Source of the DNA: a virus
Lineage: Duplodnaviria > Heunggongvirae > Uroviricota > Caudoviricetes
Length of the DNA: 22,017 bases
Reading direction: 5' to 3' (one strand)
Virus record (IMG/VR): IMGVR_UViG_2585427734_000004
The notes below the pieces were generated by a model that did no database searches, was not told where the DNA came from, and worked only from the letters and a program-made list of their open reading frames with translations. A program made the translations under genes and the position numbers. Shown here piece after piece: positions 3,246 through 21,083 of this stretch (the first letter of the stretch is position 1; each line of letters opens with the position of its first letter).

Positions 3246-3340
3246 AGGATGGGACGTTTTTACGGGGAGAGCAGGTTAAAGAGACGATACGAAAAAATGT
3301 ATCTCCTCTTGAACGTTACCGTAAGAACAAAGAACGATAG
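3116..3340 (+). CDS. Hypothetical small acidic early protein
   Basis: 74-aa ORF with GGAG upstream and natural composition; sits where fil/orf78-like genes lie in P2/186. Confidence 0.45.
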   Translation: MYAAESEVDYQFRYRGESYSVPEDDLLCCYPSLSGDGSYFFTLKDGTFLRGEQVKETIRKNVSPLERYRKNKER

Positions 3341-8382: not shown

Positions 8383-8516
8383 GAAACGTTGCTGGCGTCT
8401 GAACTTGCTTCTGGCGCCAGCAAGGTTGAACAACGAGCCGTGCGAGGCGTTAGCTCTGTGGTGCATGTCTATGCCGCATGAGATCGCATGATCGTTTGAG
8501 GATCGTTTTTGCTAAG

Positions 8517-8540
8517 GCCCGCCAGAACTGTCGGGCTTTT
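8517..8540 (+). terminator. Weak intrinsic terminator-like hairpin
   Basis: gcccg-N10-cgggc followed by TTTT; short stem, so low confidence. Confidence 0.3.
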
Positions 8541-8585
8541 GCGTAGATCATGCAGGTGCATGAAAACCACTACATAAAGCGGGCA

Positions 8586-8605
8586 GGCGTGGCGGGGATA
8601 CGAGC
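8586..8605. other. Possible cos-site remnant
   Basis: GGCGTGGCGGGGA matches, from memory, the first 13 nt of the 186/P2 19-nt cohesive end; the next 6 nt diverge. Not verified against a reference. Confidence 0.3.
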
Positions 8606-8612
8606 GCGCGCC

Positions 8613-8641
8613 TTGCCTTATATCTATTTGTTCATTAAAAT
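8613..8641 (+). promoter_or_regulatory. Putative sigma70 promoter for the retron ncRNA/RT operon
   Basis: TTGCCT (8613-8618), 17-bp spacer, TAAAAT (8636-8641). Confidence 0.3.
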
Positions 8642-8647
8642 CATTAT

Positions 8648-8850
8648 GCTCTTTAGTGTAGGAACATTGGTTCCAGCCGGGTGATTAGCCAGGCTTAAAT
8701 TTATTGTCCGGTTTAGGGTTGCGAAAGACACAGATTTCTCCTTCGCATCCCTGCCCGGGGCAGATATGCGAAGGAGAAATCTGTGTCTTTCGCTGTCTTT
8801 AGTGAAGAGTCAAAGCGCTATGTAAAGTTGCATAGCGCTTTGGTTTTAAG
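8648..8850 (+). ncRNA. Candidate retron msr-msd non-coding RNA
   Basis: Structured non-coding region immediately 5' of the RT: small hairpin ggaac-attg-gttcc (8661-8674), the 73-nt perfect palindrome (8721-8793) and a 12-bp-stem hairpin (8811-8842). Boundaries and the a1/a2 repeats are not resolved. Confidence 0.5.
8721..8793. repeat. Perfect 28-bp inverted repeat with nested ctgccc/gggcag palindrome (73-nt hairpin)
   Basis: 8721-8748 gcgaaagacacagatttctccttcgcat is the exact reverse complement of 8766-8793; read directly from the sequence. Confidence 0.9.
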
Positions 8851-8859
8851 AGGGGTTAT

Positions 8860-9795
8860 ATGCAACTAACTTCTAAAATTATCAGTAAGTTTAATTATAA
8901 TAGATTAGCTTTCCAATTACTTTTAAATGAGGCCCCCAAAAAATATAAAGTTTATTATATTCCTAAACGTGGCGCAGGTTTTCGGGTGATAGCTCAGCCG
9001 ACAAAGGAACTAAAAAACGTACAGAGATTTATAGTATCTTTGCTACAGCCAAAGCTGCCTGTTCATCATAAGGCAATGGCATATGAATATAAAAAAAGTA
9101 TTAAAGATAATGCATTGTTGCATAAAGATAATAATTATATTCTTAAAATGGATTTTCAGAACTTCTTTAATAAAATTAAACCTGATATATTTTTCTCGAA
9201 ACTTGAGAACACAGGGCTGAAATTGGATTCATTTGATGAGAACACCCTACGTAATTTGCTTTTTTGGCGTCCGGGAAAAAAGAGAAGTACAACGTTGATA
9301 TTAAGTGTAGGGGCGCCAAGCTCACCATTTATTAGTAATTTTGTTATGTATGACTTTGACAAGAGTCTTGATGATTGGTGCCGTAACAATGGTATCACTT
9401 ATTCAAGGTATGCAGATGATATAACTTTTTCAACTAATATTAAGGATATATTGTGCAGGGTTCCTAAGGTGGTAAAAAAAATGTTGTCGCTCCATGTTCC
9501 CGGTCTATCAATCAATGAATCTAAAACAATTTTTACATCGATGGCTCATAATCGGCACGTGACTGGTGTAACACTTACACCTCAGGGCAATTTATCAATT
9601 GGTCGCGATCGTAAAAGGATGCTGTTTGCAAAGATTCATAAATATTCTTTGGGACTCTTATCTTCCGAAGAAATAAATAAAACCAAAGGGATGATTGCGT
9701 TTGCAAATTATTTGGAGGGTGATTTTTTATTAAGGTTACAAAAAAAATATGGTTGTGAGTTAATAACTAAGTTCCTGATGGAAGGAAACAAATAA
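8860..9795 (+). CDS. Retron-type reverse transcriptase
   Basis: 311 aa; YADD catalytic motif (SRYADDITFS), upstream FQNFFNKI, RT-like GAPSSPFISN; AAGAGGGG RBS; AT-rich codon usage. Confidence 0.85.
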   Translation: MQLTSKIISKFNYNRLAFQLLLNEAPKKYKVYYIPKRGAGFRVIAQPTKELKNVQRFIVSLLQPKLPVHHKAMAYEYKKSIKDNALLHKDNNYILKMDFQNFFNKIKPDIFFSKLENTGLKLDSFDENTLRNLLFWRPGKKRSTTLILSVGAPSSPFISNFVMYDFDKSLDDWCRNNGITYSRYADDITFSTNIKDILCRVPKVVKKMLSLHVPGLSINESKTIFTSMAHNRHVTGVTLTPQGNLSIGRDRKRMLFAKIHKYSLGLLSSEEINKTKGMIAFANYLEGDFLLRLQKKYGCELITKFLMEGNK

Positions 9796-11429
9796 TGATA
9801 AATAAAATGAATTTAGAGACTTGCTATGTTGATTTTTTAGAGTTGGAATCACATGTGATAAACGAGGATTATTTGAAGGAGTCTGTTGAGCTTCAAAAGC
9901 TAATATCTACTTTAAATGAGAGTAAGTTTCATTTAAATAAAATAGGTATACATGATTTTAAACGGATAAGAGAACTACAGATTTCCTTAGAAGATGATTT
10001 GACTGTTTTTGTCGGGGATAACGGATTCGGTAAAAGCACTATTTTGGATGCAATAGCAATTGTTTTGAGTTGGTTGAGATCAAATATTGAAAAGGAGAGT
10101 AAGCCTGGTACTTATATTAAAAGCCATGAAGTTAATAACTCTGTTGATGTTGAGTATGCATCAATTGATGCAAATATAAAACTTAAGGACTTTAATACCA
10201 GTATTTTGATTACTAAAGCGAAAGAGGGGGCATATTATTCTAGAAATAATGAATTGTTGGAGGTAAAAAAACTTGCAAGTATTTATAGACTTGTGAATAA
10301 ATATGTTGATAATGCAAGCTTGCCTTTGATGGCATATTATTCTATTGCGCGTTCTTATATAGGCGGTGGGGTTGATAGGAAAAGAAAAAATGCTAAAACT
10401 AAAACTGTATGGTCAAAATTCGATGTGTATGATGAAATCGAGTTTGACAGAAATGATTTTACCGATTTTTTTCAATGGCTTGTATTTCTTCATAACAGAG
10501 CTTCACAAGAGAAATTGAGTGAGTCACAAACGACAATCAATGCGTTATTTTCAGATATTCAAAGTTTGAAAGCAACATTAACTCAACTATCTGCGATTGA
10601 TAATATTGATTCAACAGTTATAAAAGGTTTAGAGCTTTCGCTTAAAGAAAAATTGAACTACATGAAATCTCTGCAATCAGGAGAACATAAGTTTAATAAT
10701 GCAGTATCACTTTATGATAGTGTTATAAATACCATTCTAAAGTTCTTGCCTGAATTTCAGTGGATTAAGCTTGTTTATGGTGATGATGATTATAAGATTA
10801 TCCTTAAAAAAGGAGAGGTTGAATTAGATGTTCAACAGTTGTCTCAAGGTGAGAAAACTATATTTACTTTAGTTGGTGATTTGGCTCGACGTTTAATTTT
10901 ACTTAATCCAAATTTATCTAATCCTCTATTGGGATATGGGATTGTTTTAATTGATGAAATTGATTTGCATTTGCATCCGCAATGGCAACAGACAATTATT
11001 GAGCGTTTGACATCTACATTCCCAAATGTTCAATTTGTAGTTACTACCCATAGCCCACAGGTTTTATCCACTGTTAGCTCTCGTTCAGTGCGTATTCTAC
11101 AGGAAGTGGAAGTAGATGGTGTTAATGATTTGATAGTGTCTCACCCCGACTATCAAATAAAAGGTGTTAGTAATCAGGATGCACTTTTATATGGAATGAG
11201 AACTGATCCTATACCCTCTACTAAAGAAAATGGTTGGCTTGAAGAATATAAAAAATTGGTTGAGCTTAATCGTTATAGCAGTGACGAGGCTCTTTTGTTA
11301 AGAGAAAAAGTTATTAAACATTTCGGATTAGACCATCCTTTAGTTCAAGAGTGTGATGATCTTATATCTGTTTTGGAGTTCAAAAATAAGATAAATCAGC
11401 ACTTTTCTGGAAGTAAGGATGTAAAATGA
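9795..11429 (+). CDS. ABC-type ATPase (Septu PtuA-like) retron effector component
   Basis: Walker A GDNGFGKST, signature LSQGEK, Walker B VLIDEIDLHLHP, H-loop VVTTHSP, with a long helical insert; start overlaps the RT stop. Confidence 0.8.
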   Translation: MINKMNLETCYVDFLELESHVINEDYLKESVELQKLISTLNESKFHLNKIGIHDFKRIRELQISLEDDLTVFVGDNGFGKSTILDAIAIVLSWLRSNIEKESKPGTYIKSHEVNNSVDVEYASIDANIKLKDFNTSILITKAKEGAYYSRNNELLEVKKLASIYRLVNKYVDNASLPLMAYYSIARSYIGGGVDRKRKNAKTKTVWSKFDVYDEIEFDRNDFTDFFQWLVFLHNRASQEKLSESQTTINALFSDIQSLKATLTQLSAIDNIDSTVIKGLELSLKEKLNYMKSLQSGEHKFNNAVSLYDSVINTILKFLPEFQWIKLVYGDDDYKIILKKGEVELDVQQLSQGEKTIFTLVGDLARRLILLNPNLSNPLLGYGIVLIDEIDLHLHPQWQQTIIERLTSTFPNVQFVVTTHSPQVLSTVSSRSVRILQEVEVDGVNDLIVSHPDYQIKGVSNQDALLYGMRTDPIPSTKENGWLEEYKKLVELNRYSSDEALLLREKVIKHFGLDHPLVQECDDLISVLEFKNKINQHFSGSKDVK

Positions 11430-12109
11430 AATATCTATCTAGGCAAATGCCAGGGCCTTCCGTTCTTAATAAATTTGACTATAGGAGGGATGATTGGAAT
11501 TCCCTATCATCAAATGATAAAAAAGAAATATGGGAAGAAATAATAAAAATGCAAGGTAAATTATGTGCTTATTGCGAGAAAAAAATAGAGCATCATAAAA
11601 GTGGTGACAAAAATAAAGTTGAGAGGCATATTGAGCATTTTTACAGGAAAAGTTATTACAAAAATTTAACTTTCGAGTGGTCTAATTTGTTTGGCTCATG
11701 TGGTGAGCCGCAAAGGTGTGGGTTTTATAAGGATAAGCAAAAATATAACGATGATGATTTAATTAAAGCTGATAGACAAAATCCAGATGTTTTTTTCCAT
11801 TTTTTGGAAAATGGTGATGTTCATATTAGAGAAGGCTTGAATGAGAAAGAACACAAAATGGCAGAGGTTACGTTAAGAGTATTTAACTTAAACCCGTCCT
11901 CAGGAGGAGTCAAGGCGGAAAGAAGACGTGCAATAGAATTAAGCATGACATTAATAAAGGAACTGGTCGGATGTGCATCTCAGCTTATTGAATCAGGATG
12001 TGAAATTGAAGATGTTAGATCTATGGTCTTTGATGAGTTTAAAAAGAATGTAAAAGATAGATGCTTTACCACTGCGATAAAGCATGTTTTTGAGAATAGA
12101 ATGCCTTAA
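11426..12109 (+). CDS. HNH endonuclease (PtuB-like) retron effector component
   Basis: CAYCEKK...HIEHF HNH-like Cys/His motifs; ATGA overlap with the ATPase stop. Confidence 0.75.
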   Translation: MKYLSRQMPGPSVLNKFDYRRDDWNSLSSNDKKEIWEEIIKMQGKLCAYCEKKIEHHKSGDKNKVERHIEHFYRKSYYKNLTFEWSNLFGSCGEPQRCGFYKDKQKYNDDDLIKADRQNPDVFFHFLENGDVHIREGLNEKEHKMAEVTLRVFNLNPSSGGVKAERRRAIELSMTLIKELVGCASQLIESGCEIEDVRSMVFDEFKKNVKDRCFTTAIKHVFENRMP

Positions 12110-12190: not shown

Positions 12191-12652
12191 TCATGGATTT
12201 TTTTTTTGTAGAGGTACTAATTCATTTGTCACAAAAACCTTACTAGCTTTCTCCACATCCCCAAACCCCCCAACATTATTCGGCATAATCCCCATCATTT
12301 GCGGCGGCACACGGTGTGCCGCCATCATGTCGTCCCGGCTCACGTTCTTGATATTCAGAAATTCATCCTTCGCTGCAACTTCTGACAACGGGATGATCTG
12401 AAGCCCGTCCTTTTTGCCGTTAGGCGAGTACATAAACAAGTTACGGAAGTTGCCCGGTCCTTTGGCGCTTTTCATCGCGTTGCGGAGGTTGTTCACATCC
12501 TCCTGGTTCTGCGCGGCGTCAGTCATATACATGATGAAGCCTGCATGACTGCCGTTAATGTAATACTTGCGGCGGAACAGCGTGGCGGACTCGTTGAGCA
12601 GGGCTGACGGAATGGCAGAAAGATAAGTTTTTTCTAACGGAGCACGGCTCAT
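12191..12652 (-). pseudogene. Capsid portal (gpQ-like) C-terminal fragment; terminase gene absent
   Basis: Minus-strand ORF whose 5' end overlaps the O start codon, leaving no P-O intergenic promoter; no Walker A, so not a terminase N-terminus. The Q assignment is by position and elimination. Confidence 0.35.
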
Positions 12653-14845: not shown

Positions 14846-14937
14846 AGATTCATGCTTTTGCTAGCTTCTACAAGGTTTTATGCTTCTAAACACTGTATGT
14901 TTAATTTGACATATAACTATTTGTACAAGCGGTGAGT

Positions 14938-16161
14938 ATGAAAAAGCAAGATGAGTCCCCCAAAGCTGATAAATCAAATTTAGATAAAAGTGAGTCTGAA
15001 CCACCAAAAGCGAACTCTATGGCAGATGCCATGGCCATAGCGGCAGAGGTTGCTACGACAGCAACGTCAGTTCAAACATCAACCTTTGCAATTATCGCGG
15101 ATTTTCTACGTTCAGGTGGTATAGAAAAACTAACTTCAAATGCTATCAAAAATTTAGAAATAAAAGTAAAGGGCCATTCTCAAGCGACAAGAACTACGGT
15201 ATTGAGGAACCTGAAGACCTCTTTCAAAGAGGAGAATTTAGTTCTTGTTTTAGGTGCTGGCATTTCTTTAGATTACAGCATACCAACATGGAGTGAATTA
15301 TTAAAGCGGCTATTGGCAAGAGCTTTGGATGATAAAAATGAAAATCAGAAAATGGTATCGGTTTTGTTTAATGAGGTTTTCGGTCCGAACGCACTCATAG
15401 CAGCCAGATATCTAAAACTACACTTTGATGGTATTAATACTCCCTTGGAAAAAGAAATTCAGCATGTTTTGTATGAATATTATCAGGAGGAAGAAAGCAG
15501 TACATTGAAAGCAATCAAGAAATTGTGCATATCGGCAGGCAAGTCACCAGGTCTAGATTCCGTTATTACATATAACTATGATGATATTTTGGAACAGACA
15601 TTAACTAGAGCTGATGTTGGTATAAAGTATAAGGTGATTTCAAAGACGGGACAGCATGCAAAAAATGATGAACTGCCGATCTACCATGTGCATGGCTATC
15701 TCCCATTGCAGGGGAAAGTTGAACTCGATGACACGCTAGTCCTTTCTGATGAAAGCTATCATAGGCAATACATGGATTTATACCATTGGAGCAATATGGT
15801 TCAGTTGAATAAATTCAAAGATGGTAATTGCCTGTTTGTTGGTCATTCCTTTACAGATCCAAACCTCAGAAGGTTGATGGATACAGCCAAAAAACTTAGA
15901 GGGAATGATTCTAAACCTCATTATTTAATTAAGTGTAGACATTCGAAAGAAGATGTGATTGCTAATATTCAAAGAATTGTTAGTGACTCAAGAAATGGAT
16001 TTGATAATAAACTGAATATTAATGAGGATGCAATCGCGACCTCTCTTTTACAGACAGTGCATACTTTTGAAGAAATCGATGCTAATTCATTTGGCGTGAA
16101 TGTTATTTGGATCGACTCTTACGATGAGATTGCACCAATACTTAATGATCTAACACAATAA
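14938..16161 (+). CDS. SIR2-family (SIR2_2-like) protein, candidate NAD+-depleting defence effector
   Basis: LVLVLGAGISLDYSIPTWSELL (GAGxS), VITYNYDDILEQ (TxNYD) and PIYHVHGYL (HxHG) motifs; low-complexity K/E/S/A/T-rich N-terminal ~90 aa; AT-rich gene in a GC-rich tail cluster. Start could also be GTG 14932 or ATG 15019. Confidence 0.75.
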   Translation: MKKQDESPKADKSNLDKSESEPPKANSMADAMAIAAEVATTATSVQTSTFAIIADFLRSGGIEKLTSNAIKNLEIKVKGHSQATRTTVLRNLKTSFKEENLVLVLGAGISLDYSIPTWSELLKRLLARALDDKNENQKMVSVLFNEVFGPNALIAARYLKLHFDGINTPLEKEIQHVLYEYYQEEESSTLKAIKKLCISAGKSPGLDSVITYNYDDILEQTLTRADVGIKYKVISKTGQHAKNDELPIYHVHGYLPLQGKVELDDTLVLSDESYHRQYMDLYHWSNMVQLNKFKDGNCLFVGHSFTDPNLRRLMDTAKKLRGNDSKPHYLIKCRHSKEDVIANIQRIVSDSRNGFDNKLNINEDAIATSLLQTVHTFEEIDANSFGVNVIWIDSYDEIAPILNDLTQ

Positions 16162-16238
16162 TCTCCCTAAGTTGTGCCAGAAATGGCACAGCTTTAAATC
16201 CTATCCTAATGACGGCAGCATTTGGCAATCTAATTGCC

Positions 16239-16454
16239 ATGAACGCTCAACTAACAGAAATCATGCGCCTTATCACCAATCTGATCCGCACTGGTGTAGT
16301 CACCGAAGTGGACCGGGAAAACTGGCTTTGTCGGGTGAAAACGGGCGACCTTGAAACCAACTGGATTAACTGGCTGACACTGCGCGCGGGCAAATCGCGC
16401 ACCTGGTGGAAAACTCACCATCGACTACGACTACACGCCAGTGCCGCCACTTGA
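16239..16454 (+). pseudogene. V: Baseplate spike gpV, N-terminal fragment
   Basis: [42 protein letters not shown] matches the recalled P2 gpV N-terminus (IRTGIIVETD...CRVQTG...WLQWLTHRAGRSRTWW), then diverges after ~60 aa and stops. Confidence 0.55.
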
Positions 16455-16524
16455 AAATCTGATGCTGCGCCAGCGCATCACCGATCAGTACCTGGTGAAT
16501 TTCGCAAGCCAGGTCAGCGCGTAA
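16387..16524 (+). pseudogene. Possible tail sheath (FI) C-terminal fragment
   Basis: A second frame reads ...[36 protein letters not shown] and stops 10 bp before the FII start with an RBS, the geometry expected for the end of FI. Identity is inferred from position only. Confidence 0.3.
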
Positions 16525-16533
16525 GGGGACAAC

Positions 16534-17049
16534 ATGGCTTTACCACGCAAATTAAAACATCTGAACCTGTTTAACGACGGGAACAACTGGCAGGGGATCG
16601 TTGAGTCGCTGACGCTGCCGAAATTCACCCGCAAATATGAGAAGTATCGCGGCGGCGGTATGCCGGGGGCGGTGGATGTGGATCTGGGACTGGATGACAG
16701 TGCACTGGATACAGAATTTTCCATTGGTGGTACCGAACTGCTGCTGTTTAAGCAGATGGGCAAATCCACGGTGGATGGCATCCAGTTGCGCTTTACCGGC
16801 TCTATCCAGCGTGACGATACCGGGGAAGTGCAGGCCGTGGAGCTTGTGGTGCGTGGACGTCACAAAGAAGTGGATTCCGGCGAGTGGAAGACGGGCGAAA
16901 GCAACACCACCAAAGTGACCAGTACCAACAGCTACGCGAAGCTGACCATCAATGGTGAGGTGCTCTATGAAGTGGACCTTATCAACATGGTGGAAATTGT
17001 GGACGGTGTGGACCTGATGGAAGCGCACCGCAACGCCCTCGGCCTCTGA
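16534..17049 (+). CDS. FII: Tail tube protein gpFII
   Basis: MALPRKLKHLNLFNDG...RGGGMPGAVDVDLGL...RDDTGEV...VRGRHK matches recalled P2 FII; AAGGGGA RBS. Confidence 0.85.
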   Translation: MALPRKLKHLNLFNDGNNWQGIVESLTLPKFTRKYEKYRGGGMPGAVDVDLGLDDSALDTEFSIGGTELLLFKQMGKSTVDGIQLRFTGSIQRDDTGEVQAVELVVRGRHKEVDSGEWKTGESNTTKVTSTNSYAKLTINGEVLYEVDLINMVEIVDGVDLMEAHRNALGL

Positions 17050-17103
17050 TGTATCTGAACGGCGCGGGATACCGCGCCAGAACCCAATTTACAGGACAAC
17101 AAA

Positions 17104-17406
17104 ATGAGCGATAAGCAGACTGAAAAGACCATTCAACTGGATACCCCTATCAAGCGCGGTAAAACGGAAATCACCGAAATTGTGCTGCGTAAGCCGCAGT
17201 CCGGTGCGCTGCGCGGCACGCGCCTGCAGGCCATTATGGATATGGATGTGAACGCGATGATGACCGTGATCCCCCGCATTTCCAGTCCGGTACTGACTGC
17301 ACAGGAAATCGCAGAGATGGACCCGGCAGATCTCACCGCTATGTCGGTTGAGGTTGTCACTTTTTTGTTGAAGAAGTCGGTGCTTGCCGGTTTACCGACA
17401 GCCTGA
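17104..17406 (+). CDS. E: Tail assembly chaperone gpE
   Basis: 100-aa ORF after FII containing the TTTTTTG slippery heptamer near its 3' end, the expected E/E' arrangement. Confidence 0.75.
   Translation: MSDKQTEKTIQLDTPIKRGKTEITEIVLRKPQSGALRGTRLQAIMDMDVNAMMTVIPRISSPVLTAQEIAEMDPADLTAMSVEVVTFLLKKSVLAGLPTA
17361..17367 (+). promoter_or_regulatory. Programmed -1 frameshift slippery site TTTTTTG (E to E')
   Basis: Heptamer located 37 nt before the E stop; the -1 frame is open from here to 17756. Confidence 0.6.
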
Positions 17407-17420
17407 CGGTTGACGATCTG

Positions 17421-17756
17421 GTGGCAGACATCGCCACCATTTTTCACTGGCCGCCATCCGTTACTGACGTTATGCCGCTGGAGCAGATGGCAGAACAGGG
17501 GAAAGCATGGCCTCTGATTGAAGGCAGCGGCACGATTTACGGCATGTATGTGATTGAGGGACTGAATCAGACTAAAACGGAGTTTTTCCGCGACGGTATG
17601 CCGCGCCGGATTGAGTTCACCCTGTCGCTCAAACGGGTGGATGAATCCCTGTCCGATATGTTCGGTGATCTCAGTGCGCAACTGAATAATCTGCAGGAAA
17701 CGGCAACATCTGCTTTAAGCGATATCAGTAAAACGGTGGGAGGGCTGCTGTCGTGA
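17421..17756 (+). pseudogene. E' extension continuing into a tail-protein U-like C-terminal segment; tape measure gene T absent
   Basis: -1 frame relative to E with no stop from 17361 to 17756; ends in a GTGA overlap with the D start. Only ~130 codons lie between the E slippery site and D, where P2 has T (~815 aa) and U. Confidence 0.45.
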
Positions 17757-18853
17757 ATTTCAGCTCTGAACTGCTTAACAAGGGCAACAAAACTCCCGCA
17801 TTCAGCATCAGTATTGAGGGCAGGGATATCACTACTGTCCTGGATAATCGCCTGATGAGTCTGACGCTGACGGACAATCGGGGCTTTGAAGCGGACCAGC
17901 TTGATCTGGAGCTGGACGACGCCGACGGAAAAATCGTGCTGCCGCGCCGTGGTGCGGTCATTACGCTGGCGCTGGGCTGGAAGGGGCAGCCGCTTTTCCC
18001 GAAAGGGGCATTCACGGTGGACGAGATTGAACACACTGGCGCACCGGACCGCCTGACTATCCGGGCGCGAAGTGCTGATTTTCGGGAAACGCTGAATCCC
18101 CGCCGTGAAAAATCGTGGCACAAGACCACGGTTGGGGAAGTGGTGAAGGAAATAGCTGCGCGTCACAAACTGAAGATGGCACTGGGTAAAGACCTGTCGG
18201 ATAAACCCGTGGATCATATAGACCAGACTAATGAGAGTGACGGCAGTTTTCTGATGCGGTTGGCGCGCCAATACGGTGCTATTGCGTCGGTGAAAAATGG
18301 CAATCTGTTATTCATCCGACAGGGACAGGGCAAAAGCGCCACTGGTAAACCACTGCCGGTGATCACTATCACACGCAAGGACGGCGACAGTCACCGATTT
18401 ACCCTGGCAGATCGCGGAGCCTACATGGGCGTAATTGCCAGCTGGTTGCATACCCGCGAACCTGCGAAGAAAGAAAGCACCACGGTGAAGCGTAAGCGCA
18501 GAACTAAGAAGCAGAAGAAAGAGCCGGAAGCGAAGCAGGGCGATTACCTGGTGGGTACGGATGAAAACGTGCTGGTACTTAATCGCACTTATGCCAACCG
18601 GAGCAACGCCGAACGGGCAGCGAAAATGCAGTGGGAACGCCTGCAACGCGGTGTTGCGTCATTCTCGCTACAACTGGCGGAAGGGCGGGCAGATCTCTAC
18701 ACGGAAATGCCAGTGAAAGTCAGTGGCTTTAAACAGCCGATAGATGATGCGGAATGGACTATTACCACCCTGACGCATACTGTCAGCCCGGATAACGGTT
18801 TTACGACCAGTCTGGAGCTTGAAGTGAAGATTGATGATTTCGAAATGGAATGA
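17753..18853 (+). CDS. D: Tail protein gpD
   Basis: LTLTDNRGFEADQLDLELDDADG...FTVDEIEHTGAPDRL...RSADFR...SW, KR-rich central linker and C-terminal TSLELEV match recalled P2 gpD; GTG start with GGTGGGAGGG RBS. Confidence 0.85.
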   Translation: MNFSSELLNKGNKTPAFSISIEGRDITTVLDNRLMSLTLTDNRGFEADQLDLELDDADGKIVLPRRGAVITLALGWKGQPLFPKGAFTVDEIEHTGAPDRLTIRARSADFRETLNPRREKSWHKTTVGEVVKEIAARHKLKMALGKDLSDKPVDHIDQTNESDGSFLMRLARQYGAIASVKNGNLLFIRQGQGKSATGKPLPVITITRKDGDSHRFTLADRGAYMGVIASWLHTREPAKKESTTVKRKRRTKKQKKEPEAKQGDYLVGTDENVLVLNRTYANRSNAERAAKMQWERLQRGVASFSLQLAEGRADLYTEMPVKVSGFKQPIDDAEWTITTLTHTVSPDNGFTTSLELEVKIDDFEME

Positions 18854-18943
18854 TTCTTCGCAATGGAGAACTTTTAAGTTTTCAAAATGGAATAATGCGG
18901 TATCATTATTGTGAATTTAGCAAAAATGGGGAGAACTCGAAAA

Positions 18944-19162
18944 ATGATGATTTGCCCACTGTGTGGAAGTGCCGCCCATACTCGCAGCAGTTTTCAGGTA
19001 TCTTCATTGACCAAAGAGCGTTACAACCAGTGCCAGAACATTAACTGCAGCCATACTTTTGTTACCCATGAAACTTTTGTTCGTTCGATTGCAACGCCAA
19101 AAGAGTCAAATCCGGTTCAGCCGCATCCAATGAAATCAGGACAGGTGGCGCTCTCTCTTTGA
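18944..19162 (+). CDS. ogr: Ogr/Delta-family zinc-finger late transcription activator
   Basis: MMICPLCGSAAHTRSS...ERYNQCQNINCSHTF...RPHP matches recalled P2 Ogr (CPLCQHAAHARTS...ERYHQCQNVNCSATF...RPHP). Confidence 0.8.
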   Translation: MMICPLCGSAAHTRSSFQVSSLTKERYNQCQNINCSHTFVTHETFVRSIATPKESNPVQPHPMKSGQVALSL

Positions 19163-19184
19163 CGCTGCCGCCAATTTGTCGCCA
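19163..19184. repeat. Putative attR core (cgctgccgccaatttgtcgcca)
   Basis: Direct repeat of 19-40 with one mismatch, starting immediately after the ogr stop. Confidence 0.55.
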
Positions 19185-19397
19185 TCATTAAAAAACAGTG
19201 CTTCTAACATCATGATTTTAAAAGGCATAAATTTCAGGCAACAAAAAACCCATCAACCTTGAACCGAAATGGCGGGGGTGATGGGCTCCACAAAATGGGG
19301 ACATCAAAGAAAAGCAGTGGCACTAATTAAGACTGATGCCCTGCGGAAAAGTTCTGCGGTTGTGCAAAAAAATTTCATTTTCAGGGCAACTTCAGTT

Positions 19398-21083
19398 TTA
19401 TCCTAATCCTGGCCATACCATGACGATGATTGTCCCTGCCAGCGTCAGCAGGACGTTGGCGATTGCATAGGTGCCCGCATAGCCCAGCGCCGGGATGTTA
19501 CTGCGAGCTGTATCACTGATGATCTCCATTGCCGGCGCGCAGGTACGTGCGCCCATCATTGCGCCGAACAACAGCGCGCGGTTCATTCGCAATACATAAG
19601 CACCGAACAAGAAACAGATAACCACGGGCACCAGACTGACAATCAATCCGGCAATCAACATCTGACCGCCAATCGCGCCCAGGCCGTTATTAATCCCGCT
19701 ACCGGCGCTCAGACCAACGCCTGCCATAAACACCATCAAGCCGAACTCTTTCACCATGCTTAATGCACCCTGCGGAATGTAACCGAAGGTCGGGTGGTTA
19801 GCACGCATAAAGCCCAGCATAATTCCGGCGAATAACAACCCGGCAGCGTTCCCCATGCCGAAACTGAATGTGCTGAACTGGAAGGTGATCATCCCGATCA
19901 TCAGCCCAATAACAAAGAAGGCGCAGAATGCCAGCAGGTCAGTGACCTGGCTGTGAATCGAGATAAAGCCGATGCGATCGGCGATGGTTTTTACGCGACG
20001 GGCATCACCGCTGACTTGTAAAACGTCACCTTTGTTAAGCACGACGTTGTCATCTATCGGCATCTCAATCTGGCTACGAATGACGCGGTTAAGGAAGCAA
20101 CCGTGATCGGTCAACTTCAGTTGTGCGAGACGTTTACCTACAGCGTTATGGTTTTTAACGACCACTTCTTCAGTGACGATACGCATGTCGAGAAGGTCAC
20201 GATCGAAAACTTCTTTACCGTTACGGAAGCTGGGATCGAGTCGGGCATGGGCGTCGGGATAGCCTACCAACGCTATTTCATCGCCCATTTGTAGCACGGC
20301 ATCACCGTCTGGATTTGCCAGAATCCCGTTACGTCGAATACGTTCAATGTAGCAGCCGGTTTGTCGATAAATACCCAGTTCACGCAGATTTTTGCCGTCG
20401 GTCCAGGCCACCAGCTCCGGGCCGACGCGATAGGCGCGGATCACCGGTAAATAAACCTTACGGTTGGCATCAGTGTCCAGGCCACGTTCGCGGGCGATTT
20501 GCTGGGCGCTGGTCTGTAAGTCCTGATGCTGCAATTTCGGCAAGTAACGCGCACCAACAATCAAACTCACCAGACCGATTAAATAGGTTAAGGCATACCC
20601 GAGGCTCAGATTATCCAGTGCCAGTGAGAGCTGCCTGCTTTCCATGCCGGAATGACGCAGTGTATCGCCAGCACCGACCAGAACCGGTGTCGACGTCATA
20701 GAGCCTGCTAACATACCGGCCGTCAGGCCAATATCCCAGCCAAACAGCTTACCTAACCCTAAGGCGATCACCAGCGCACTGCCAACCATCACCAGTGCTA
20801 ACATTAGGTAATTTTTCCCATCGCGAAAAAAAATGGAAAAAAAGTTCGGTCCGGCTTCAACCCCAACACAGAAAATAAACAGCATAAAGCCAAGATTAAG
20901 CGCATCGGTGTTAATGCTGAAATGTTGTTGGCCTAATAACAGCGATACGACTAAAACGCCAATGGAATTACCCAGTTGGATCGAACCAAGTCGTAACTTT
21001 CCGAGACATAGCCCAAGCGCGAGGACCACAAATAATAACAGAATGTAATTCCCATTTAACAATTCGGCGACGTTTATATTCAC
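19398..21083 (-). CDS. ybjL: Putative transport protein YbjL (AAE transporter family)
   Basis: 561-aa polytopic membrane protein recognised as E. coli YbjL; conserved synteny ybjL-ybjM-grxA. Confidence 0.9.

Follow-up and report, generated by a model that had tools for sequence, protein, structure and literature searches.

Cryptic prophages of Escherichia coli arise by deletional decay, the P2 remnant ogrK-yegZ of K-12 being an example. In phage P2 itself, E and E+E' are reportedly a chaperone pair made via -1 frameshifting, as described by Christie et al. in 2002 and by Xu, Hendrix and Duda in 2004. The shift takes place at TTTTTTG, and a single start serves both products, which are 91 aa (E) and 142 aa (E+E') long (PMC3091744). 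The window examined here, the whole 22,017 nucleotide stretch of IMG/VR record IMGVR_UViG_2585427734_000004, contains a locus that resembles the P2 pair in the PF10109 domain of E, in the T TTT TTG phase near the 3' end of that gene, in the conserved ...DDLxADIAxIFHWPPS... at the start of the -1 extension and in its place directly after the tail tube gene FII. It differs from P2 in that the extension, 19 residues short at its end, runs on into 91 residues of U, in that the tape-measure gene served by the chaperone is missing, and in the length of the predicted product, which is 217 aa rather than 142-145 aa.

We conclude, with a probability of about 0.85, that the segment 17355-17756 is the scar of a 3336 bp deletion in a defective P2-like (Peduoviridae) prophage that lies beside ybjL in E. 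coli. A deletion scar in a defective prophage is a known kind of feature, and by itself this one adds a further pseudogenised tail module to those on record. Its wider interest lies in the recurrence, precise to the nucleotide and in unrelated E. coli strains, of the break from which it was formed. The features on which the argument draws are as follows, in window coordinates.

12624-12626, no strand: deletion junction 1, with 2420 bp lost (the 5' part of the portal gene Q and the terminase gene P); microhomology TAA
13855-13857, no strand: deletion junction 2, with 3236 bp lost (most of the capsid gene N through lysB); microhomology TGG
16173-16190, + strand: TGT-N12-ACA dyad TGTGCCAGAAATGGCACA, a candidate Ogr-dependent late promoter element, found by pattern match
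16408-16412, no strand: deletion junction 3, with 6983 bp lost (V' through most of the sheath gene FI)
16534-17049, + strand: tail tube gene FII, intact, 171 aa; Pfam PF04985 over its full length (E=1e-59), collinear with the intact relatives
17104-17406, + strand: gene E, tail assembly chaperone, intact, 100 aa; Pfam PF10109 (Phage_TAC_7)
17361-17367, + strand: slippery heptamer T TTT TTG, the -1 frameshift site of P2-type E and E+E', from sequence and phase
17367-17480, + strand: retained E' extension in the -1 frame, E+E' residues 89-126 ending ...SVTDVMPL; PF06528 profile positions 1-21 of 37, identity with ZH48
17478-17480, + strand: deletion junction, CTG common to both parental sequences, from alignments to loci L001 and L002
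17481-17756, + strand: 3' part of U, residues 71-161 and stop, in frame with E'; PF06995 profile positions 62-120 of 120, identical to ZH48 U
17753-18853, + strand: gene D, baseplate hub, intact, GTG start; Pfam PF05954 and the ORF list
18944-19162, + strand: ogr, late-gene activator, the last prophage gene before RybB and ybjL; mapped from the ogr/Delta-like gene of L002, with Pfam Ogr_Delta in the L003 equivalent

The whole window matches E. coli chromosomes, and the best match is SC475 (NZ_LR778148), which has an intact prophage of ~36 kb with the same cargo between rcdA and ybjL. Compared with SC475, the window has undergone four clean deletions of 2420, 3236, 6983 and 3336 bp, each with 3-5 nt of shared sequence at its ends, and only the 3336 bp deletion is a multiple of 3. 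The blocks that were retained share 96-99.9% DNA identity and the same gene order with the prophages of SC475 and ZH48 and with phage 4LV2017, from which the window differs in lacking about 16 kb, T included, in four deletions. The genes lost are P, most of Q and N, M, L, X, Y, K, part of lysB, most of V, W, J, I, H, G, most of FI, T and part of U, and with them went the terminase, most of the portal and capsid, head completion, lysis genes, baseplate and fibre, most of the sheath and the tape measure. The integrase, repressor, early genes, A, a retron system, O, R, S, a SIR2 gene, FII, E, D and ogr were kept. A prophage that has no terminase, baseplate, sheath or tape measure and has lost most of its capsid gene cannot build a particle.

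The prophage occupies a known P2-like att site, with the integrase ORF ending at window position 1 and ogr at the other end. At 18944-21083, ogr, RybB and ybjL succeed one another as they do in SC475 and ZH48 (NZ_CM137833). The RybB small RNA gene (19240-19318, - strand; Rfam RF00110, 100 bits) sits between the prophage end at ogr and ybjL, and the att site therefore adjoins it. RybB was the only match when the window was scanned with Rfam. The immunity region at 1112-2218, which encodes a 218-aa CI-like repressor on the minus strand, is without a match in SC475, and the left end of the prophage is mosaic relative to this best overall relative.

The retron defence system is of the Ec78/St85 type and lies at 8860-12109 (+ strand), in a hotspot for cargo that is flanked by gene A and the portal gene. 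It is made up of a reverse transcriptase (311 aa), a PtuA-like ATPase (544 aa) and a PtuB HNH nuclease (227 aa), preceded by a non-coding stretch at about 8466-8860 in which no Rfam family reached the gathering threshold. A 73-nt inverted match at 8721-8793 in this stretch is probably part of the retron msr-msd RNA. The SIR2-family gene (14932-16161, + strand; a 409-aa ORF, with Pfam SIR2_2 in relatives) lies between S and V and was kept despite the deletion of neighbouring virion genes. Both the Ec78-type retron and the SIR2 gene are also present in the intact SC475 prophage, and their retention while virion genes were lost accords with the idea that defective prophages serve as defence islands. 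Like cryptic prophages such as ogrK-yegZ, the window has kept its attR-proximal late genes and ogr, has lost morphogenesis genes and has been inherited vertically. Its decay differs from theirs in being recent, in having proceeded in several clean steps and in using break points that recur across strains.

The deletion that concerns us here was defined by comparison with four intact relatives, Klebsiella phage 4LV2017 and the prophages of E. coli SC475, ZH48 and IAI39. When the window was compared with phages using megablast, Klebsiella P2-like phages matched it in two separate places. In 4LV2017 the gene order is FI, FII, E, E', T (3078 bp), U, D, ogr, and alignment revealed that window positions 16408-17480 correspond to its FII-E-E' block and positions 17478-19353 to its U-D-ogr block. 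The two collinear blocks meet at 17478-17480 and share only CTG, and between 17480 and 17481 the 3336 bp (1112 codons) found in the intact relatives are absent. Lost at this junction were the last 19 codons of E', the whole of T and the first 70 of the 161 codons of U (43%). The chaperone locus is thus not situated between tube and tape-measure genes as it is in the four intact relatives, FII being present and T absent. The initial annotation had recognised from the sequence that the tape-measure gene is missing, and this is borne out by the four comparisons. Its statement that most of U had gone as well was too strong, as the loss amounts to under half of the gene, and the loss of the end of E' is an addition to its account.

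Neither of the partial genes at the junction is complete. E' lacks the end of the PF06528 profile, its last 19 residues having been swapped for U sequence, and U, where a full domain takes up 120 profile positions in ~160 aa, has lost residues 1-70 and is without a start of its own. In the -1 frame, a truncated GpE domain (PF06528, 1-21 of 37) is followed directly by a truncated GpU domain (PF06995, 62-120 of 120). The predicted frameshift product of 217 aa is equal, residue for residue, to residues 1-126 of ZH48 E+E' followed by residues 71-161 of ZH48 U, and the fusion in frame of the E' extension to a U-like C-terminal segment, suspected earlier, is therefore exact. The E+E' and U proteins of P2 align to the same two halves of the predicted product, while P2 T and ZH48 T gave only background alignment scores. 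The alignment to P2 E', T and U that had been proposed as a check thus agrees with a chimera, and the outcome named beforehand as refuting it, a complete distinct gene at 17421-17756, did not materialise. In intact phages E' and U lie in one codon phase and, as the deletion is a multiple of 3, they were joined in frame.

Gene E begins with an ATG at 17104 and stops at 17404-17406, and its PF10109 match (E=1.1e-18) covers residues 9-88. At the heptamer the zero frame of E reads ACT TTT TTG, which is the X XXY YYZ phase for a -1 slip, and in ZH48 and P2 the heptamer occupies the identical place near the 3' end of E. The identification of TTTTTTG at 17361-17367 as the P2-type slippery site is upheld by this position and phase. 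After a TGA at 17349-17351, the -1 frame is open from 17352 until the TGA at 17754-17756, giving 134 codons in total and 129 beyond the slip site, in agreement with the ~130 codons estimated before. In the GTGA at 17753-17756 its stop overlaps with the GTG from which the 366-aa D ORF begins. The chance of a 134-codon opening in a random frame is ~(61/64)^134, or roughly 0.002. The long open -1 frame is made up of two genuine coding frames joined in phase, and only the phase of the join was left to chance. The segment containing the whole of E and the retained part of E' (17100-17480) was found to be 100% identical in 19 complete E. coli genomes.

The E' break, ...GTTATGCCGCTG/ACCGAAGTG... (the slash marks the break, which has the sequence CTG/ACC), lies at 17480/17481 in the window, a position equivalent to 2664/2665 in L009 and 31838/31839 in L002, and has been reused to the nucleotide. 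When a 40-aa E' ORF was used as a query, at least 45 distinct chimeric 'GpE family' proteins from E. coli and Shigella were found that break at E+E' L126/T127. Fourteen of these retain the left part and run on into T (in several frames), U or D, and in 31 the right part follows pieces of N, X, LysB, LysC, the sheath protein and other genes. The chimeras were picked for ~50% coverage, a class that dominates the best 120 matches, where uniformly spread break points would give coverages of 50 to 100%. Junctions at the E' site are also present in two complete genomes, IAL7255 (W'/E') and EC581 (FII'/E'). Some truncated E' matches from other genera likewise end in ...DVMPL, for example P0185 of Salmonella Typhi, a partial protein found in 15 contigs.

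Two further chimeras of E' and U were found. The first, P0004 (...DVMPL/AEQGKAW), is 9 nt shorter, falls in the 90% cluster of the window ORF and is present in two other ybjL remnants of different architecture, one reduced to int-CI...FII-E-E'U-D-ogr (L006) and one with different cargo and an intact sheath gene (L007). The other, P0016 (...DVMPL/PEITGG...), was returned by a protein search and is part of remnant L012. In all three variants the left break is identical (...GTTATGCCGCTG/), and the U part starts at codon 58, 71 or 74.

The right-hand end points cluster in U codons 58-76, corresponding to about 5962-6019 in L009, of which window positions 17481-17500 represent the right part. Other in-frame partners of the U C-terminus are O, N, L, S, an invertase, a CII-like gene, FII and E. 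Eighteen of the 20 distinct U-side junctions are in or just beyond codons 55-85, and two are upstream of codon 55. Four different partners are joined at ATG/CCGGAG (P58), and others at E71, A74 and Q76. DNA was retrieved for three of the four P58 joins (L012, L013 and L014), and these are on three different haplotypes. Other junction sites of the window are reused too in independent remnants, the junction 1 site in Q in the P0251 remnant and the right-hand site of junction 2 in lysB/lysC in the P0249 remnant, and a site in T is common to P0200 and IAL7255. Among the 21 partner sites that were mapped, 18 end in TG, and the microhomology is mostly 2-3 nt, occasionally 4-8 nt around TGACC. The ybjL remnants of IAL7255 (L018) and EC581 (L019) each contain several clean deletions, for example K'/S, W'/E' and T'/D' in one prophage, and multi-step or burst-like deletion seems typical of this phage family.

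All of the E'-U variants could have descended from one ancient deletion that was modified by small slippage deletions and by recombination with intact phages at ybjL. Every remnant examined sits at ybjL, the left break point is common to the three variants, and the 9-nt and 39-nt differences between them lie between short TG/CTG repeats, all of which would suit such a history. However, the window is closest to ZH48 over more than 1 kb on each side of the junction, and L006 and L007 are closest to IAI39 over the same extent, with 1-7 mismatches over about 3 kb in each case. The ZH48 and IAI39 haplotypes are 3.2% divergent, with diagnostic SNPs as close as 52 nt to the left and 24 nt to the right of the junction. 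In L012 the right-hand haplotype is a third one, and L012, L013 and L014, which share the P58 break, already diverge from one another within 28 nt to its right. Moreover, the E' site has been joined to dozens of unrelated partners. A single origin is thus improbable, and as the variants sit on different haplotypes, their independent origin appears to be the simpler reading of these sequences. The exact recurrence of the E' break is beyond what generic microhomology of 2-3 nt explains, and the comparisons suggest that it is a fragile site.

Several possible causes of this recurrence were considered. The E' and U break regions were compared and share no longer homology or inverted repeats, only 8-mers at the level expected by chance. 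A direct repeat, TTATGCCG, was rejected because it is out of register with the junction. Nicking by gpA at a pseudo-origin was also set aside, the nick site in the P2 origin (GCGCCTCG/GAGTCC) being unlike the E' site, as were quasi-sites for a serine invertase, given that no half-sites of the AAACC..GGTTT type were seen. On inspection, no Chi sites were seen at the hot sites. DNA folding placed the E' break at the 5' transition from stem to loop in a weak quasi-palindrome (z=-0.2 for the region). In the U hot region the top strand is more stably folded than shuffled sequences (z=-3.2), and the P58 and E71 breaks lie in loops. The predicted folds are suggestive of hairpin-provoked breakage.

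Gyrase trapped by quinolones cleaves each strand just before a G, and the two cuts are staggered by 4 nt (PMC6379681). According to an established proposal, gyrase mediates illegitimate recombination by exchanging subunits or interfaces (PMC11164529), and Ikeda and co-workers described gyrase-associated illegitimate recombination that has hot spots and needs little or no homology (reviewed in PMC11164529). The junctions described here resemble such events in that precise, recurrent breaks are joined pairwise with ~2 nt shared (T/G). From its sequence alone, the E' site, CT/GACC/G, with G first and C fourth in the 4-nt stagger, would be compatible with quinolone-trapped gyrase. The partner sites fit the symmetric G..C pattern of gyrase poorly, and some junctions, in contrast to gyrase recombination, have 4-8 nt of microhomology that is a better fit to end joining.

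It is conceivable, though on present evidence doubtful, that the decay of P2-like prophages in E. coli is generally non-random, proceeding through a few nucleotide-precise fragile sites that are rejoined pairwise at T/G. The strongest would be the E' site (...GCCGCTG/ACCGAAG), and others would lie in U codons 58-76, T, lysB/lysC, N and Q, with a site-preferring activity, possibly quinolone-trapped DNA gyrase or hairpin cleavage, making the breaks. If so, the same in-frame E'-U chimera and the other junction sites of the window would arise repeatedly in unrelated strains, and prophage inactivation would be predictable and possibly antibiotic-driven. Should deletions reuse the same nucleotides across lineages, prophage domestication would have a measurable mechanistic bias.

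For the window, we propose that the deletion would have been formed by illegitimate, microhomology-associated joining at the recurrently broken E' site. The slippery site would have been kept simply because it lies 113 nt upstream of the break. Were late transcription to be activated by Ogr, most of the ribosomes translating E would stop at 17404-17406, and a minority would slip into the -1 frame and produce a 217-aa E-E'(delta C19)-U(71-161) protein. Only the slipped ribosomes would reach the start of D by coupling at GTGA. The chimera would have no role of its own, with the slippery site a passive survivor. A promoter may still be present, as TGT-N12-ACA is presumably the motif of Ogr-dependent late promoters and a copy of it is found at 16173-16190, 49 nt upstream of the ATG of the V' stub. 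It is possible that this surviving dyad could still drive transcription of FII-E-E'U'-D, a suggestion to be read beside the five matches to the pattern in the window against 5.5 expected by chance, which is no enrichment.

The uninterrupted frame needs no selective explanation either. In these genes, TG falls on codon positions 2-3 in 52-56% of cases overall, a share that rises to 69% in U, and the codon directly before the E' break is CTG. Most TG-to-TG joins of E' and U will consequently preserve the frame, and the naive expectation of 1/3 becomes about 0.5-0.7 when the TG bias of the junctions is allowed for. With the tape measure, sheath and baseplate gone, there is nothing to assemble, and the E'-U fusion is most likely a non-functional scar.

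Domestication of the fusion under selection is very improbable, and it could take either of two forms. A hybrid of chaperone and tube initiator might act as a dominant-negative against incoming P2-like phages, poisoning tail assembly after Ogr or Delta of the invader has activated the late promoter of the remnant. Alternatively, frameshift-dependent coupling might serve as a device that keeps D translated. Selection of this kind could be read into the existence of at least three in-frame E'-U variants on different haplotypes and in different remnant architectures, in all of which FII, E, D and ogr are intact. The retention of the defence cargo (the Ec78-type retron and SIR2) and of the upstream TGT-N12-ACA dyad points the same way. 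The deletion was sized for two of the variants, at 3336 and 3345 bp, both multiples of 3. However, the in-frame deletions and the intact late genes FII, E, D and ogr of the window remnant, while open to a selectionist reading, are explained by the phase bias of TG together with recency. Out-of-frame joins at the same E' break are numerous (P0193, P0196, P0200, P0203-P0208, P0213 and P0222), and the site thus recurs regardless of the product. The TG bias by itself predicts that about 0.5-0.7 of joins will be in frame, and the window junction was found in none of 5426 complete E. coli genomes. The sequences flanking it show only 1 and 6 mismatches to the intact ZH48 prophage over 3 kb, from which it follows that the deletion is recent and that divergence is too small for selection on the chimera, purifying selection included, to be revealed.

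In addition to its absence from the complete E. coli genomes, the exact junction string had no match in the GTDB species representatives, which comprise one genome per species, and a gapped junction pattern had no match in the GTDB representatives or in IMG/VR. These absences might be taken to indicate an error of sequencing or assembly, of which we see scarcely any likelihood. In metagenomes the gapped pattern returned one match of the window type, in a human gut metagenome contig. The exact 111-aa ORF that extends from a GTG at 17421 to 17756 was found in at least 20 contigs from NCBI drafts and Logan assemblies, among them the NCBI draft genome GCA_025315335.1 and Logan assemblies of several runs. 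The carrier loci L003-L005 are 99.95% identical to the window. Carriers share the deletion architecture and have all four deletions wherever the locus extends far enough. The junction is therefore present in independent assemblies that came from different pipelines (NCBI drafts, Logan and an ENA metagenome), assemblers do not collapse on overlaps of 2-5 nt, and two complete genomes carry other junctions at the same E' site. We conclude that the window junction is genuine and has been passed on vertically within one E. coli lineage. In one carrier, L004 (SRR11015011), homology to the window stops inside ogr from position 11532 (window 18952) and unrelated ORFs follow; this break may represent an insertion or further rearrangement in that isolate.

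That 17421-17756 might be a complete, distinct gene for a short U-like protein and no chimera, as the label 'phage tail protein' given by NCBI to the 111-aa ORF would allow, can be dismissed with near certainty, given that E' supplies its first 20 residues and U 71-161 the remainder, each identical to the intact ZH48 protein, that both Pfam domains are truncated at the junction and that the flanking DNA segments are 3336 bp apart in the four intact relatives. Entries annotated in this way should be read with caution, as the 111-aa 'phage tail protein' in NCBI is the E'-U chimera.
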